Assembly (NCBI GenBank): GCA_011088105.1
Contig: JAALKI010000001.1
Coordinates: 30,353 to 94,352 of the forward strand
Direction of reading: 5' to 3'
From: Nitrospirota bacterium
GTDB lineage: Bacteria; Nitrospirota; Nitrospiria; Nitrospirales; UBA8639
DNA length: 64,000 nucleotides
Within the stretch, counting starts at the first letter, position 1. Each line of letters starts with the position of its first letter. The translations under genes and the position numbers were made by a program. Below are positions 15,721 through 28,478 of this stretch, piece after piece. Under the pieces are notes generated by a model. It saw only the letters and a program-made list of their open reading frames with translations. It ran no database searches and had not been told where the DNA came from.

Positions 15721-16104
15721 TTACGCAGAGCATTGAAAGGTTTTTTCAAGATCACTCTCTAAGGTGAGCACGATGACCCGTTCACCAATACGAGTGTCAA
15801 TGTCCGTAAAGAGCCCGGTGATGCCCATTCCGGTGATGTCGGTTATTTGACTACGAAGCTTTTCTCCACCTTGAGAAATTAAATTTTGACGCATGCGCTT
15901 CACCATTTCTACCTCTTCAGCACTCTTAGCCAGTTGCCGCTCAGCAGGAGTCAGCACACCCTTAAGCCGTACTAATACGAGATCGCGGATCACAAAAGCC
16001 TTGACATCCATAGGGCCTCGCCCCATAAACTCTTGTTCAAACTTAATCACGGTATTGCGAATAGCTGTTTCGACTTCGCCCTTGGTTTTTTCGTTTTTTG
16101 TCAT
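15721..16104 (-). CDS. DUF2294-family protein
   Basis: From the ATG at 16104: MTKNEKTKGEVETAIRNTVIKFEQEFMGRGPMDVKAFVIRDLVLVRLKGVLTPAERQLAK ... TDIDTRIGERVIVLTLE. This fits my memory of the DUF2294 family pattern. Confidence 0.7.
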   Translation of the reverse strand: MTKNEKTKGEVETAIRNTVIKFEQEFMGRGPMDVKAFVIRDLVLVRLKGVLTPAERQLAKSAEEVEMVKRMRQNLISQGGEKLRSQITDITGMGITGLFTDIDTRIGERVIVLTLESDLEKTFQCSA

Positions 16105-16246
16105 TGTTTGATGTCCTATAAGGTGAATTAGGACCATGACATGATACAAAAGAAAGGTGACAGCGCAAGACATCTTAGGTGGTCATTATTCGATTTATCA
16201 ATGCAATGATTATAATTGGTTCAAAATCGACTGAGTGAAAAAATAG

Positions 16247-19299: not shown

Positions 19300-19635
19300 T
19301 TAAGGCTCTGATGATTCATAGTGAGCTTTTCTGAGAACACACGCATCAATCACAAAGATGCTTCCAGAATGACGCTCTAGGAATGGCCTGAGTCCTGATA
19401 GAATGGGCTCAACTTTCTCTTCAGGTACGACGGTCAATACCATTTGCAAGCTACTGGTGTCATTGAACATCAGATGCCCTTCGTGGAATCCACTGTGCCC
19501 TTTTCCTGAGAGATTGCTGAAGATCGTGTAACCACTGGCTTTGATTCGATCGAGTACTTCTGTCACAAAACTCAGGTGTTCTCCCTCAATAATGACCTTG
19601 ATCTCCTTCATCGGGTGAAGTTTGATGGTACTCAT
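19300..19635 (-). CDS. PII-like (GlnB-fold) small signalling protein
   Basis: SD GAGGAGG (19653-19647) precedes the ATG at 19635. The sequence ...MKEIKVIIEGEHLSFVTEVLDRIKASGYTIFSNLSGKGHSG ... QMVLTVVPEEKVEPILSGL ... GSIFVIDACVLR follows the PII beta-alpha-beta pattern. It lies 29 nt downstream of dabA2. Confidence 0.6.
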   Translation of the reverse strand: MSTIKLHPMKEIKVIIEGEHLSFVTEVLDRIKASGYTIFSNLSGKGHSGFHEGHLMFNDTSSLQMVLTVVPEEKVEPILSGLRPFLERHSGSIFVIDACVLRKAHYESSEP

Positions 19636-19664
19636 GATTGACTGGTCCTCCTCAACCTGATGGA

Positions 19665-22600
19665 TTACTGAATAAGTTGCCAATCGTTCCGTGAATCATG
19701 AAAAAAGAATTCCCTGGTGGCCGGATCTAGGGCCACGAGGTTGATCCATTGATTGCCAATGAGTCGTTTAAGAATATCATGCCGAGAAATGATCATGCTA
19801 ATTCGTTCCCGCGGCGCTTCAATAATAACAAATAACCGCATAGGTTCGTGATAGGGCTTTTCCTCATTGAGAACCGTTTGGACTGGCAAGCCAACACAGA
19901 GATCACTTTGGGACCCATACATGACCCCGACTCGGCTGACCACATTGTGATAGACCTTACTTCCGGCACCATACACCGCTGGGTCCACCGTGGAAAAATA
20001 ATGCTCCATGTTAATCCAATTTCCCACGATCATGGGCGCGGTCATAATAATTTCCAAATATTTTCCTGTCTCATCTTGTGAATGATCGTACGAGTGTAAA
20101 AATGTTCGTCCTTCAAGATTAATGCCTTGCGTTAAGAGACGTCGCCCCACAATAAACGCGGTATGTCGAGAAAGACCCCATTCCGGTCGAACTTGAGACC
20201 AGTCTATGCTACGCTGTTTGGTTCGCTTAGAAGCCTCGCCCAAAGACTCGCAGCCATTCTCGTCAGGTAAGCGAGTTAACCGCTCGAAGCTATTGCAACG
20301 CGAGGCTTCCTCCAGATCGTGTTGCAATCTCAGCAAATCTTTGCGATGAGTCGCTGGCACATCCTCCAGATCAAACAATTCGACTTCATCAGTTGTGGTG
20401 TCGTGTTGGCCTGGTAGGAAATGGGTATCAGGAGGGATATGAATCCCTTTTTGCGCTAAAATTTGTCGCACTTCTCCTTTGTTGGCCATAGCAGCAAAGG
20501 CTCGGGCATTTGAAACCCCATGGTTCCCTCCACAGGCCCCACAATCTAAGGCCGATTCATAGGGATTGTTGTCCGAAATACTGCCATGAGCGCACGTCAA
20601 GATGAGTCTGGAAAACGTTTTGGTAAAACCTAATACCCGAAGAGCAGTTTCCACAAAAAGGACTTGCTCGTTGGTGGTGAATCCTGTCTGCGTGATGCGA
20701 TGCATCCGATGAGTAACCGCACGTTCGTGCACATCATATTTGCGTCTCAAATCTTGAATAAATTGCTGATGATCGGATTTCGTCCACTGGAGTTTGCTGT
20801 GTAATTCTTCGTCTGCATCCGGATCAAAGGTCATTTGGTTCAGCGCCTGTTTGCGAAGCCGTTCGACTTGGTCATGCGAAACCGTGTTGCCTCGTCGGCC
20901 GAATTGTTCGATGAGCATGCGATAGATGGTTGCACGGTGCTCTGAGGCAACCATTTCCTCTGCCTCCTGGTTGGTGAGCTTTTCAACGGTCAACGTCGTA
21001 CCAATGGGAATGGCAAAGCGTTCTGTAAACCAAGACTTGATTTGTTTAAACCACAAAGGGCTCAAGGTTTGGCCAAATAGCCTGAATCCGAAAAACCAGC
21101 CAATCGCTTCCACCATGACATAGGGGGTAATCACGTTTTCTTTTAAATCATGAAGCAGCGTGTGCCCAGTTTTGGCTAACTGTTGCCGTTCCAAAAATTG
21201 TTCGGCCGCCTTACCTTGATACGCTCGAGGGATTTCTTTGATAATATGTTTGGGTTTGAGGAGTACCGGACATTGATCGGTCTCTTGCTCGCTTCCAAAC
21301 TCTTGGTAGCAGAGAGGAACGCCAAAAAATCCTGCAAACCCAAAGGTTTCATTGCCTCCCACCTCTTCGAAATGTCTGCGGAACCCTTCTGAACGTACAT
21401 CAATACAGAAAATTCCTTGGACCAAAGGACGTGATTCAGCGGGTTGATCCGCTGACTCATCGATTTTTTCGAGTTTCTCAAGATTCGGAGAAAAACGTGG
21501 GAGGAAACTTTTGATGTAAGTGAGTTCAAATGCTTTCAACCAAATCGGACCATGTTGTGACTCTGGAAATTGTGACACCCATTCCAGCAACCCGTCCACG
21601 GATTCTTGAGGACTTGAGACTAACTCTTTGACAGAGAAGTCAAGGGCTTTGGCGAGGTGCAACAAAATTAAGGCCTTTTGGTGAATGTCCTGTTCTCGGC
21701 GAATTGATTGCCATGTTTCTTTAATGCGCGCTGCGCTTTGCTCCAGTGCGTCAATAGGCAGGGGGTGTTGCACGAATAATGAAAGATCAAGATTCCCAAC
21801 AATTTTTTCCGGTAGGCCGGTAAGCTTCCATTCCTTGAACAGACCGTAACCGGTTACGTGCTGGTTTACGTAGGACAGGATCGAGGCATAAGACCCTTCA
21901 ATACCAAGGTTCTCCTGGCATGCCAATGCAACCAGTTCTTTTTCATAAAACAAGCGAACCGCGAGGTACTTGACCAGGTCGATGTGATAAGCATTCTGCC
22001 ATTCATAATCCGATTGTTCTGATCTCCATTTGATGAACCCGGCCCATCCTGACATCTGAGCCAAATGCAAGGTGAGGTAATCAATCCACAAATCATGGGG
22101 AATGGCCATGGTCTCGAGACTTTCGACGATGGCATCCTCTGGTCGGTTCGGAAGATTTTGAATCTTGGACTGCCAATGTGGAATGCCTAACAAAGAACCA
22201 GACTGATCTTCTTGAGCTAAAATCTTCCATCCACCATAAAACGTTTTGTGTCGAAGCGGCATAGACCATGGGGCATGTCCTTCATCGAGAAAGCCTCCAC
22301 ACCATTTGATGAGCTCGTAGCTGATGTGGTCTTGAATGGTGGTGCCAAGTGTTTGATCGCACCAGGCGGAAAGGGTGTACTCCGAAATAATCTCCTTTTG
22401 CTCAATATTGGCATGATCATTCAAAGAAAACGTGCGTGCTTTGGACGCGAACAGAGCTTGGAGTTTGTCAATCAGCTCCTTTACATCATTGTCGCTCATT
22501 GACTCTCGTACAATAGCTGAAGCCACATCAGGTGCTGTGTAGCCCCTTCCATTGATGAGCATTGTACGCAAGGCTTCGAGATGAGAAATCTTTCGATTGC

Positions 22601-22916
22601 CAATGGCAATGCTTTGGTTTTGCGTCTGATCCCTCAATGCTTCATGAATAGCATCTTGGGAGATACGGCCTTGTTGGTAGTAATTCCGGTATTCTTGATT
22701 GGGTAGATACCCTTTCCCACCAAGAAACCTTGTGCCTTGTTTAATGGCATCACCAAAAGGCAAGTGTTCCAATCCATGAAGGGGATTATGGTGAATAAAG
22801 GTTTGCATGGGCCAAAAGTGAGAAATGGGTTCACTTGCCAGTTTCACAAGCGAGCGAATTTCCATTCGCTGGGCATCTTTTGATTGAACCAATTCTTTGA
22901 GTTCAGCCACGATCAA
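19665..22916 (-). CDS. dabA: DabA-like DUF2309 protein, operon copy
   Basis: 1083 aa with FWPMQTFIHHNPLH, FCIDVRSEGFRRH, ETFGFAGFFG and CAHGSISDNNPYESALDCGACGG. Confidence 0.85.
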   Translation of the reverse strand: MIVAELKELVQSKDAQRMEIRSLVKLASEPISHFWPMQTFIHHNPLHGLEHLPFGDAIKQGTRFLGGKGYLPNQEYRNYYQQGRISQDAIHEALRDQTQNQSIAIGNRKISHLEALRTMLINGRGYTAPDVASAIVRESMSDNDVKELIDKLQALFASKARTFSLNDHANIEQKEIISEYTLSAWCDQTLGTTIQDHISYELIKWCGGFLDEGHAPWSMPLRHKTFYGGWKILAQEDQSGSLLGIPHWQSKIQNLPNRPEDAIVESLETMAIPHDLWIDYLTLHLAQMSGWAGFIKWRSEQSDYEWQNAYHIDLVKYLAVRLFYEKELVALACQENLGIEGSYASILSYVNQHVTGYGLFKEWKLTGLPEKIVGNLDLSLFVQHPLPIDALEQSAARIKETWQSIRREQDIHQKALILLHLAKALDFSVKELVSSPQESVDGLLEWVSQFPESQHGPIWLKAFELTYIKSFLPRFSPNLEKLEKIDESADQPAESRPLVQGIFCIDVRSEGFRRHFEEVGGNETFGFAGFFGVPLCYQEFGSEQETDQCPVLLKPKHIIKEIPRAYQGKAAEQFLERQQLAKTGHTLLHDLKENVITPYVMVEAIGWFFGFRLFGQTLSPLWFKQIKSWFTERFAIPIGTTLTVEKLTNQEAEEMVASEHRATIYRMLIEQFGRRGNTVSHDQVERLRKQALNQMTFDPDADEELHSKLQWTKSDHQQFIQDLRRKYDVHERAVTHRMHRITQTGFTTNEQVLFVETALRVLGFTKTFSRLILTCAHGSISDNNPYESALDCGACGGNHGVSNARAFAAMANKGEVRQILAQKGIHIPPDTHFLPGQHDTTTDEVELFDLEDVPATHRKDLLRLQHDLEEASRCNSFERLTRLPDENGCESLGEASKRTKQRSIDWSQVRPEWGLSRHTAFIVGRRLLTQGINLEGRTFLHSYDHSQDETGKYLEIIMTAPMIVGNWINMEHYFSTVDPAVYGAGSKVYHNVVSRVGVMYGSQSDLCVGLPVQTVLNEEKPYHEPMRLFVIIEAPRERISMIISRHDILKRLIGNQWINLVALDPATREFFFHDSRNDWQLIQ

Positions 22917-22922
22917 TTCTCT

Positions 22923-23999
22923 CTAATACAACAGTCCACTATAACTCGCAGCAGCAATGAGTAGGGAAAGAGCACAGATTTCCCCGACGTTCAAATCTTC
23001 GTAGGGAATATCTGGCCTAGCTTTACCAAAGGCAGTTTGGTGCAGCAAATGTGAAAAATACCAGCCTCCCAACATCCACACATTGAGTATGATGAAGGAA
23101 ATGATGACGAGGGAAACATCCTGATTGTCCGTTGTCGGCATGGTTGTTAAGCCTGTCAATATTGGAATCATGGGAAGCGCCACAGCGATGCTGATCAGAA
23201 TAATGAGTAAAACCCCTAGGCGCGGCATGACCAAGGCTAAGCCTGGGAGGGTTCCTATGGTATGTAATCCAAACTTCTGTTGAATCCAGTGATACGTGAC
23301 AAGGAGACCAGTCATGACCAAGGCAATGGTTAACCCAAATGGTATTAACCATTGGGAAAACGTCGAGAACACCGTGGTGAGTCCCCACAACATGGAGACT
23401 TGAGAGATGATGGCGTAGGTGAGTAATGGCCGAATTTCGATTTGCCCCAGGCATTTAAATGAGGAATACAGCGCACTGCCCAAGGCCAACACCGAAACGG
23501 CGGCTGGCATTCCTTCCGACAGAACAGTTTGAAGCTGCGCGAGTTCAGCCAATCCCAGAGAAAGGAACACCGTTGTCCAGAGACCAGAAAGTGCCCCATG
23601 AGAAGAACTCACGAGAGAGGCAAAAGGTAAATGGAACGGAGGGAGTGGCACAAGAGTGACTCCTAAAACCAGTCCAGCAAACATGGTTAATGAGTTACCC
23701 GAAAAGGAAGAGCCCAGCGCAAGTAAAATCGCGAGAGCGATTTGGGCGAGACTGATCGTTTTAATCGTGGCGGCGCAATGAGACTTAAAGAGAAAGTAGG
23801 CCGCATACCCAAGAATCCCCACAAGAAAATATCTGTTGATGGGGAAGGGAATCAGTAATGTTGCAAGGCCAAGTCCAGACACCACAAGAATGTCTACATG
23901 AGCCGTTGACGAGTGCTTTGAACGGTGTTGGCCAAGAATTACACACACTGCAGAAAGAATAATCGCAAAGGCAAGCATCGCTGTGGCTTCTATATTCAT
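22923..23999 (-). CDS. degenerate NuoN/MrpD-like (antiporter-like) membrane protein
   Basis: 358 aa and highly hydrophobic. LVLGVTLVPLPPFHLPFASLVSSSHGALSGLWTTVFLSLG aligns by eye with the antiporter-family core (AIK..FPFHxWLPDA..APTPVSALL..LLKLG), but the conserved Lys positions are replaced. It lies 29 nt after dabB and 6 nt before dabA2. Confidence 0.5.
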   Translation of the reverse strand: MNIEATAMLAFAIILSAVCVILGQHRSKHSSTAHVDILVVSGLGLATLLIPFPINRYFLVGILGYAAYFLFKSHCAATIKTISLAQIALAILLALGSSFSGNSLTMFAGLVLGVTLVPLPPFHLPFASLVSSSHGALSGLWTTVFLSLGLAELAQLQTVLSEGMPAAVSVLALGSALYSSFKCLGQIEIRPLLTYAIISQVSMLWGLTTVFSTFSQWLIPFGLTIALVMTGLLVTYHWIQQKFGLHTIGTLPGLALVMPRLGVLLIILISIAVALPMIPILTGLTTMPTTDNQDVSLVIISFIILNVWMLGGWYFSHLLHQTAFGKARPDIPYEDLNVGEICALSLLIAAASYSGLLY

Positions 24000-25994: not shown

Positions 25995-27716
25995 TCAAGC
26001 TTCTTTGGGATCAATATCCCTCCCAAGAAACTGTTCCCCAATGTAATCAATGCCTCTCCTCAAGGCCCCGTCAAAATCTTCGGCAATGTTCTCTTCACCA
26101 ATATGCTTGAGCACACTCAACTCGGTCAGCGTACGACGCACAGCGGGATTCATCCCTTTGAGCAACACCATGGTCCCTCGTTTGTGAGCCAAACTCACCA
26201 TGTCCTCCAAGGCAAAGGCTCCGGAGAGATCAATGACCGGCACATACCGTAATGACACAATCAACACCTTGTAATGCACCAGTCGATCAATTTGCCGATA
26301 CATCGTATCGGCAATCCCAAAAAACATTGGCCCCTCAGGTTCCAGGACTGCGATGTACTTTTTTAAATGCTGGGGCACCAACGCTCCAGTCGGTTTCTGA
26401 GACTCTTCAAGTCCCTTGACCTCGGGCTTCCACATTTCGCTCATATCTCGGACAAATAAAAAGAAGGCAATCGCCAAACCCACGCCAACAGCCACGAGGA
26501 GATCTTCCCAGACGGTTAAAAATAGTACTGTCCAAAACGTAATTTTTGAAGGCGTCGGCATTCGGTGCAAAACAGGAAAGACCCGGAAATCAAGAATGTC
26601 ATACCCCACTTTAAAGAGAATACCCGCCAGTGAAGCCATAGGAATATACGAGGCCAATGGGGCGAAACCGAGGACAAGAGCGAGTAACACCAATCCGTGC
26701 ACACATGTCGCCGTGATTGTCTTGGCACCGCATTGAATAGCCACCACACTTCGCATCGTGGCCGTCGCCGTAGTTAAGCCACCGACCAAGCCTGCGGCCA
26801 TGTTGGCCATACCCTGCCCCCAGATTTCTTGATCGCTATTGTGCCGATCATCTGTCATTTGGTCGATCACCACACAGGTCAACAAAGAGTCATATACCGC
26901 CAGCCCCGCCAGTGCGGCGGCTGGGCCAATCATGTCATCAAGCTGTGAAAGGGGGGGGAAGTAAATATCAGGGAGACCTGTTGGCACCTCCGGAATATAG
27001 TCAATAGCCAATCCAAACGCATTCGCGACCCCGGTTCCAACAGCCAGGCCCACCAAGGGACCGGGAAGCCAGATGACTTTGGTAAGTTTTGGCCAAACAA
27101 TAATGGTGCCAAGGGTCAAACAGGAAATCAGCACTGCCTGAGGATTTGCATTCATGGCTGAAAAAGGAATGGCAAGAAGCGCTTCCCGAACAGACGAAAG
27201 CGTTGGGAGACCGACAAATGGATTAAACTCAATGATCATGACGATTGCGCCAATGCCACACATGAAACCTGATATCACAGAATAGGGCGTAAGATAGATA
27301 TACTTCCCTACTCGCATGATGGCGAGGGCGAGCATGAAAACTCCACTGAGAAACACACATCCAAAAGCAAACCCTAAATCCGGCTGTCCGTTCGGGAGCA
27401 TATGTTCATGCATCACAACGGCGAGCTGAACCGTTTTCGGTCCTGTTGGCCCACTGACACCAACATTCGATCCACCGAATAATCCACCAACAATTCCCCC
27501 AGCGATCGCCCCCCACATTCCTGTAATGGCCCCCAAGCCAGAGGCAACACCGAACCCGAGCGCTAATGGCAAGGCAATAAACGCGACGGTGATCCCACCC
27601 ATCGTATCTTGGGCCAAGTTGGTTCCCATGATCCGAATGCTGGGCCAGGGGTTAAAATCTTTTAAGTGGTCTCGTATTTTCGTCTTCTGAATGTCCACTC
27701 CATGTCCTTTCTTCAT
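25995..27716 (-). CDS. SulP-family anion transporter with C-terminal STAS domain (BicA-like candidate)
   Basis: 573 aa. It has the typical SulP N-terminus (GGITVAFIALPLALGFGVASGLG), many TM segments, and a C-terminal STAS-like region (VLIVSLRYVPVIDLSGAFALEDMV). Confidence 0.9.
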   Translation of the reverse strand: MKKGHGVDIQKTKIRDHLKDFNPWPSIRIMGTNLAQDTMGGITVAFIALPLALGFGVASGLGAITGMWGAIAGGIVGGLFGGSNVGVSGPTGPKTVQLAVVMHEHMLPNGQPDLGFAFGCVFLSGVFMLALAIMRVGKYIYLTPYSVISGFMCGIGAIVMIIEFNPFVGLPTLSSVREALLAIPFSAMNANPQAVLISCLTLGTIIVWPKLTKVIWLPGPLVGLAVGTGVANAFGLAIDYIPEVPTGLPDIYFPPLSQLDDMIGPAAALAGLAVYDSLLTCVVIDQMTDDRHNSDQEIWGQGMANMAAGLVGGLTTATATMRSVVAIQCGAKTITATCVHGLVLLALVLGFAPLASYIPMASLAGILFKVGYDILDFRVFPVLHRMPTPSKITFWTVLFLTVWEDLLVAVGVGLAIAFFLFVRDMSEMWKPEVKGLEESQKPTGALVPQHLKKYIAVLEPEGPMFFGIADTMYRQIDRLVHYKVLIVSLRYVPVIDLSGAFALEDMVSLAHKRGTMVLLKGMNPAVRRTLTELSVLKHIGEENIAEDFDGALRRGIDYIGEQFLGRDIDPKEA

Positions 27717-28064: not shown

Positions 28065-28478
28065 TTACTCAAAGAAGTCTGTATAATACCGTATTAAATC
28101 ACTCAAAGCCAAAATTCCAATAATCTTCTCCCCATTTTTTACCACTAAATGGCGGACCCCATTCGCTTTCATAATGTCCTGTGCTTCTCGGGCCGATTGG
28201 TGGTGATCAACAGAAATAGGATCTTTTCTCATGATGGATTCTACCAGAGTGGTCTCTGGATTACGTCCCTTCGCCAATCCCTCTCGTGTCAGTCGTTTTT
28301 CAGAAACAATTCCCACATAGTTGTTACAGTCATCAATAACAAGTAAGGCCCCTACCATGCGTTCGGTCATGACCTCAGCCGCTTGCTGGAGGGTGGCATT
28401 GATGGGAATGGTAAGAGGATCTTCATGCATGTACTCAGCAATGGTCGATGGCTTGGGGGAAGACGTTTGGTCTGACAT
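28065..28478 (-). CDS. CBS-pair domain protein
   Basis: 137 aa with two CBS-like repeats (MTERMVGALLVIDDCNNYVGIVSEKRL and MKANGVRHLVVKNGEKIIGILALSDL). Confidence 0.85.
   Translation of the reverse strand: MSDQTSSPKPSTIAEYMHEDPLTIPINATLQQAAEVMTERMVGALLVIDDCNNYVGIVSEKRLTREGLAKGRNPETTLVESIMRKDPISVDHHQSAREAQDIMKANGVRHLVVKNGEKIIGILALSDLIRYYTDFFE

Follow-up and report, generated by a model that had tools for sequence, protein, structure and literature searches.

The open reading frame of 358 codons located between dabB and dabA (ORF358) very likely codes for DabC in a long form; DabC proteins are the third membrane subunits in DAB1-type (three-subunit DAC) vectorial carbonic-anhydrase complexes. 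The gene lies on the minus strand of a stretch of 64,000 nucleotides from a Nitrospirota bacterium, a marine Nitrospirales MAG (GenBank assembly GCA_011088105.1, contig JAALKI010000001.1, positions 30,353 to 94,352), which is referred to as the window in the following. The new part is the long-form architecture, which is a variant of the known DabC and not a new system, and the current model of DAB function is unchanged by it. The long form was not found described in the papers searched, which exclude Schmid et al. (2021) and the final version of Desmarais (2019).

The initial annotation had regarded the locus as a three-subunit DAB variant and had stated that the described DAB/Mps systems are two-component. 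This statement is wrong. DAB1 has been described as a three-gene cluster with a half-length protein encoded between DabA1 and DabB1 (Desmarais et al. 2018, bioRxiv 10.1101/476713) and as a three-subunit complex or DAC encoded by hneap_0907, 0908, and 0909 (Lo et al. 2026, PMC13144422), and DAB1 of T. albus has been solved as a DabA–DabB–DabC heterotrimer (Phillips et al. 2026, bioRxiv 10.64898/2026.05.01.722082). In the solved complex DabC is NuoM-like, its proton-transfer positions are occupied by hydrophobic residues and no water chain was seen in it, and DabC is essential where this was tested, that is in the T. albus and H. neapolitanus work (Phillips et al. 2026). The T. albus DabC is listed as "fused" in Table S6 of the same study and described as part of a heterotrimer in its text. 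Because ORF358 appears to be the DabC of such a DAB1-type system, the claim of a new three-component architecture fails, whereas the accompanying functional reading, a probably non-pumping structural subunit, is supported by our analysis.

Organization of the DAB operon

On the minus strand the genes follow each other in the order SulP/STAS, dabB, ORF358, dabA, and P-II (Table 1). The spacer from the end of dabB to ORF358 is 29 nt long and the spacer from ORF358 to dabA 6 nt; these distances, the length of the reading frame and the peptide strings had all been given exactly in the initial annotation. The product of ORF358 is 100% identical to GKS05_08210. The operonic dabA starts with a TTG codon and a GTG is found two codons downstream. 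Among the PDB sequences its product matches DabA2 (9rd0) with an E value of 4e-109, and its top plasmid match is the DabA of the N. hamburgensis DAB1 system.

Table 1. Features of the DAB locus and of its surroundings (positions in the window)
Feature	Position	Strand	Support
MpsC-family gene	15721–16173	-	PF10057 (E 2e-31)
Second DabA paralogue, 1008 aa	16247–19273	+	PF10070 (5e-267)
P-II-type regulator, operon end	19300–19683	-	PF00543 (7e-22); PDB 5d4l/5d4n (E 1e-32)
DabA, 1083 aa, long DabA1-type, cytosolic beta-carbonic-anhydrase-like subunit	19665–22916	-	PF10070 (8e-264)
ORF358, very likely long-form DabC, 358 aa, ATG start, 12 predicted TM helices	22923–23999	-	ORF, homology, model, synteny, dN/dS
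ORF358, DabC core, residues 105–342, equivalent to NuoM TM7–TM14	22974–23687	-	hhalign vs short DabC
ORF358, G283-L284, NuoM TM12 "GE" position, Glu replaced by Leu	23148–23153	-	
ORF358, FLSLG, residues 145–149, TM8	23553–23567	-	NuoM TM8 Lys position is S147; E152 about one turn later
ORF358, TM7-like broken-helix motif TLVPLPPFHLPF, residues 115–126	23622–23657	-	PxxPxH kept; NuoM TM7 Lys is L116 or gap
ORF358, N-terminal extension, residues 1–104, four TM helices, about NuoM TM3–TM6; absent from canonical 253-aa DabC	23688–23999	-	
DabB, NuoL-like proton-conducting subunit, 571 aa	24029–25744	-	PF00361 (5e-58), PF00662 (2e-16), TIGR01974 NDH_I_L (1.8e-109)
SulP/STAS anion transporter, directly upstream of dabB	25995–27716	-	PF00916 (4e-67), PF01740
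CBS-pair protein	28065–28478	-	
Mrp/Mbh-like cation antiporter cluster	28989–36615	+	

The P-II reading frame as listed comprises 127 aa, starts with TTG and overlaps the end of dabA. Because its relatives have a length of 108–111 aa, translation probably starts at M17 (position 19635), giving a protein of 111 aa. The two PDB entries matched by this protein, 5d4l and 5d4n, are presumably the bicarbonate-responsive carboxysome-associated CPII protein of Thiomonas. Upstream of dabB the SulP/STAS gene, a possible member of the operon, codes for a possible bicarbonate transporter. A SulP gene next to the DAB1 locus is also seen repeatedly in Nitrospira, Nitrospina, and Gammaproteobacteria and suggests an island for the combined uptake of CO2 and bicarbonate. 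Upstream of the SulP/STAS gene there is a gene for a CBS-pair protein.

Relationship to the short and fused DabC proteins

An exhaustive search of 1.8 billion representatives with the ORF358 family profile gave 363 hits. Among these are proteins of 850–877 aa (E values from 1.3e-27 to 1e-13), in which DabB makes up the N-terminal 560 residues and the remaining C-terminal part of approximately 270 residues matches ORF358 from about residue 105 onward. These DabB::DabC fusions, for example P0167 and P0192, are followed by dabA and match the entries for Aquificae which Phillips et al. (2026) list as "fused" in their Table S6. In the fusions the short core is joined directly to the C-terminus of DabB, whereas ORF358 is a separate protein with extra N-terminal helices.

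The family profile also matched a stand-alone protein of 253 aa, P0251, with an E value of 4e-7. The locus of this family in a gammaproteobacterial MAG (L062) reads dabB(559)–X(253)–dabA(1043)–P-II(108), the numbers being the lengths in amino acids. P0251 is in turn 40% identical (E 3e-28) to WP_011504819, a hypothetical protein of 253 aa encoded between dabB and a DUF2309 gene on plasmid 1 of N. hamburgensis X14, and this operon (Nham_4323) is listed as DabC-positive in Table S6 of Phillips et al. (2026). In a profile–profile comparison with hhalign the ORF358 family aligned to the short DabC proteins (including the DabC of N. hamburgensis) with a probability of 95.4% and an E value of 1.9e-8, residues 105–342 of ORF358 covering residues 2–232 and the alignment extending over the whole of the short protein. 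The ORF358 family HMM alone did not match the N. hamburgensis DabC significantly (score -2.8), and the link between the two proteins needs either the intermediate P0251 or the profile–profile comparison. The relationship of ORF358 to DabC is remote but consistent. The profile of the short DabC proteins found no match in the PDB sequence set, in which DAB2 (9rd0) is the only DAB entry.

ORF358 resembles DabC (Hneap_0908, T. albus) in several features. Both are encoded between dabB and a long (>1000 aa) dabA, in the proteobacterial loci read here a P-II gene follows dabA as it does in our operon, and both resemble NuoM but are hydrophobic where protons would be transferred. They also have the tryptophan residues W205, W308, and W313 (ORF358 numbering) in common, which are specific to the DabC-like group. 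The two differ in size: DabC has about 253 aa and, inferred from the alignment, about 8 TM helices, which is about half of NuoM, whereas the 358 aa of ORF358 form 12 TM helices. DabC has been reported to match no Pfam family, whereas about half of the ORF358 family have weak hits to PF00361. Finally, the published DabC list contains mostly Proteobacteria and Aquificae and the long form is found in marine nitrite oxidizers.

Kinship with NuoM and loss of the charged axis

Searched as a single sequence ORF358 has no significant match in Pfam, NCBIfam, or the PDB sequences; a match to DUF334 (E 0.016) and one to QmcA (E 1.4) were treated as noise. The homology to the NuoL/M/N core emerges only with profiles or with the structure. 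As the searches with the single sequence came back empty, it was therefore non-trivial that the initial annotation recognized the antiporter core in the letters of PPFHLPFASLVSSSHGALSGLW (residues 120–141). This recognition is borne out by profile comparisons and by the predicted structure. The family profile found the plant Nad4 among the PDB sequences (E 0.0018), the PLxPFH motif being aligned to the TM7 motif VPMVPVH, and 13 of the 26 aligned family members reached PF00361 (best E 1.1e-6); ORF358 itself stays below the Pfam gathering threshold of this model. With hhalign the family aligned to NuoM proteins, the members of this alignment being confirmed as TIGR01972, with a probability of 99.1% and an E value of 5.4e-19 over 329 columns, and residues 11–350 of ORF358 were paired with residues 90–467 of NuoM. 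An AF2 model of ORF358 (pLDDT 81.8, pTM 0.84) was compared with the PDB by Foldseek. The top hits were all NuoM, ND4, or NdhD (E 3.6e-7, TMq 0.62–0.75), and NuoL, NuoN, and MrpD ranked after them.

The model has 12 TM helices, the helices of the N-terminal extension comprising residues 3–23, 30–49, 54–72, and 77–99. ORF358 has the PF00361 fold of two inverted five-helix repeats with broken TM7 and TM12, as do NuoM, ND4, NdhD, and MrpD: there is a broken helix at residues 117–123 and a break at residues 282–293. Of the scaffold of these subunits it has kept PxxPxH, G149, Y178, Q186, M258-P259 (MP(R)), P276, G283, D335, and E340. It differs from them in being shorter and without TM1–2, in its context, which is a DAB operon and not complex I or Mrp, and in the missing TM5 Glu, TM7 Lys, TM8 Lys, TM11 His, and TM12 Glu.

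In an alignment of 150 representatives to the ORF358 family profile the true NuoM proteins have Lys in TM7 and TM8 and Glu in TM12, apart from a few with Ile or Met at the TM7 position and two with Leu or Phe at the TM12 position. The corresponding residues of ORF358 are L116 (or a gap), S147, and L284, and all DabC-like sequences, long, short, or fused, are hydrophobic or small there. The initial annotation had already noted the loss of the TM7 and TM8 lysines from the strings GVTLVP (residues 113–118) and FLSLG, and the profile alignments agree with it. With hhalign the segment carrying the TM5 Glu of NuoM falls into an 11-residue gap in ORF358 and the TM11 His is aligned to Ile. Of the charged residues which form the central axis of the pumping subunits (TM5 Glu, TM7 Lys, TM8 Lys/His, TM12 Lys/Glu) ORF358 has none of the four. 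Because the canonical proton-transfer residues are absent, ORF358 is probably a structural, non-pumping third antiporter-like membrane subunit. In TM8 the membrane-embedded residue E152 is E or Q throughout the Nitrospirales/Nitrospinota clade; most other DabC-like clusters have Gly at this position, as does true NuoM. The position of the NuoM TM10 His is Q or H in the clade of ORF358.

Long-form architecture, distribution, and constraint

A protein search found 284 relatives of ORF358, which have 358 aa in marine Nitrospirales and 412–414 aa in Nitrospira and Nitrospinota. The model of the 414-aa orthologue from Nitrospira (P0075; pLDDT 89.3, pTM 0.91) has 14 TM helices with a broken TM7 and covers NuoM almost completely (TMq 0.71–0.81, TMt 0.62–0.74, compared with a TMt of about 0.5 for ORF358). 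Relative to the short DabC, ORF358 has four extra helices, corresponding approximately to NuoM TM3–6 without the TM5 Glu segment, and the 414-aa form has six (TM1–6). The DabC family thus forms a series with 14 TM helices, 12 TM helices, 8 TM helices, and 8 TM helices fused to DabB.

The dab operons were surveyed for the insert with one genome per GTDB species. We found 57 loci, all from Nitrospirales/Nitrospira or Nitrospinota except for one 3-kb contig binned as Chlamydiae, and wherever the flanks are present the gene lies between dabB and dabA. Nearly all loci that reach past dabA have a P-II gene after it. More distant long forms of 422–459 aa occur in another Nitrospira, in a Melainabacteria MAG and in a metagenome, and they too are found in the order dabB–X–dabA–P-II. 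In two Nitrospirales genomes (L009, 7775–8001, and L010, 7741–8001) the spacer between dabB and dabC is 225–260 nt long instead of 29 nt; the longer spacer might represent what is left of the two N-terminal helices which the 358-aa form has lost in comparison with the 412–414-aa forms.

The orthologues of 15 species are all exactly 358 codons long and free of internal stops. The pairwise dN/dS values of these orthologues (Nei–Gojobori) have a median of 0.19, with 0.23 for residues 1–104 and 0.18 for the rest, and 50 columns are invariant among the 26 aligned relatives. ORF358 including its extra N-terminal helices is under purifying selection. The term degenerate, which the initial annotation had used, is therefore appropriate for the lost catalytic residues only; the gene is not decaying.

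Possible role of ORF358 and alternative explanations

With a SulP gene ahead, the operon dabB–dabC–dabA–P-II would give rise to a DabA–DabB–DabC heterotrimer, in which the NuoL-like DabB would conduct protons and DabA would hydrate CO2 to bicarbonate in the cytoplasm. By analogy with what was reported for T. albus and H. neapolitanus, ORF358 would pack laterally on DabB as NuoM does on NuoL, and it would contact DabA via the highly conserved cytoplasmic C-terminal loop H320–E340 (HQTAFGKARPDIPYEDL). Its role may be to stabilize or assemble the complex or to couple the proton flow through DabB allosterically to the buried carbonic-anhydrase site of DabA. ORF358 itself would move no ions, since TM5 Glu, TM7 Lys, TM8 Lys, and TM12 Glu are all missing. 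The docking, the essentiality, and the absence of ion conduction are thus what we infer for ORF358 from the DabC proteins of T. albus and H. neapolitanus.

We consider it improbable that ORF358 is still an ion-conducting half or full channel providing a second proton or sodium path via E152, H123, Q199, and H320. The full antiporter scaffold is retained from TM4 to TM14 with both broken helices, and with E or Q at position 152 and Q or H at the TM10 position throughout the clade some interaction with ions or water is therefore possible. On the other hand, throughout the whole DabC superfamily the four canonical charged residues have given way to hydrophobic or small ones or to a deletion, true NuoM and most other DabC-like clusters have Gly in place of E152, and no water chain was seen in the solved DabC. 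The idea that ORF358 is a functionless, decaying relic of a duplicated antiporter gene deserves hardly any credence, even though the catalytic residues are lost and ORF358 evolves somewhat faster than its neighbors, with 70–77% identity compared with 76–86% for DabB and DabA of the same loci. The exact conservation of the length in 15 species without internal stops, the invariant columns, and the essentiality of DabC where tested all argue against it, and by the dN/dS of about 0.19 together with the presence of the gene in every locus surveyed a pseudogene is effectively refuted.

A further explanation starts from the second DabA paralogue in the window. This gene converges on the DAB operon, its product is 38% identical to the operonic DabA and contains the catalytic-looking motifs CIDVRSE and LDCGACGG, and it comes without a DabB or DabC of its own. 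The long form might dock this DabB-less DabA in a DabA–DabB–DabC–DabA' assembly, the extra N-terminal helices of ORF358 replacing the role of DabB. In favor of such an assembly the lone dabA adjoins the operon, and the arrangement recurs in several Nitrospirales and Nitrospinales loci; near the DAB locus a second DabA is intact in L005, L016, L023, L032, L033, and L051. We regard the assembly as very improbable, as many long-form loci have no second DabA nearby or only split or short reading frames of it (L019, L021, L024–L027, L029, L052) and as the long forms from other lineages show a single DabA in the stretch read. ORF358 as the DabC of a DabA–DabB–DabC heterotrimer remains our preferred explanation.

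As to the evolution of the family, the origin of DabC from a full NuoM/MrpD-like subunit is supported. It is conceivable, although rather unlikely as a whole, that the long form with 12–14 TM helices (Nitrospirota, Nitrospinota, Melainabacteria) is the ancestral DabC, that DAB1 began as a full antiporter pair similar to NuoL–NuoM or MrpA–MrpD which captured a carbonic anhydrase, that the short DabC of Proteobacteria and Aquificae is a later reduction, and that the N-terminal helices and E152-type polar residues give the long form a role which the short DabC lacks, for example docking of the neighboring DabB-less DabA or a coupling with the Mrp-like cluster next to it.

As vectorial carbonic anhydrases, DAB complexes drive CO2 uptake in many chemoautotrophs and in some pathogens. 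The common view of marine nitrite oxidizers is that they use the reverse TCA cycle and have no carboxysomes. They carry DAB1-type operons, and their DabC has kept the complete or nearly complete antiporter fold. Because there is no Pfam or NCBIfam model for DabC, the protein is labeled hypothetical in genomes or misannotated as NuoM, and the alignments obtained here are a basis for building a DabC family model. Besides annotation, the long form is useful for understanding the evolutionary origin of DabC and for structure–function studies, since the natural series of 14, 12, and 8 TM helices and fused forms allows one to dissect which helices DabC needs.

Further genes near the DAB locus

MpsC (PF10057) is the third gene of the mpsABC operon of S. 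aureus and is likewise found beside DabA and DabB homologues. An identity of ORF358 with MpsC was rejected: ORF358 has no PF10057 hit, MpsC is a small protein family unrelated to it, and the window contains its own MpsC homologue, divergent from the lone dabA. In about 13 related loci a MpsC homologue is encoded within a few kb of DAB1, and this is also the case in a distant Nitrospira (L068).

On plasmid 1 of N. hamburgensis X14 (L066; NC_007959, 263298–275780) the unit dabB–dabC–dabA(–P-II) is tandemly duplicated, and both copies encode the identical DabC, WP_011504819.

About 1.3 kb from the SulP–DAB operon there is a Mrp/Mbh-like cation antiporter cluster with genes for MnhE, MrpF, MnhG, MbhD/E, MnhB, a NuoK-like protein, and three full antiporter-like subunits of 488, 705, and 501 aa. 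L005, L016, and the Nitrospina-like contig L004 show the same linkage of a Mrp-like cluster to the DAB locus.
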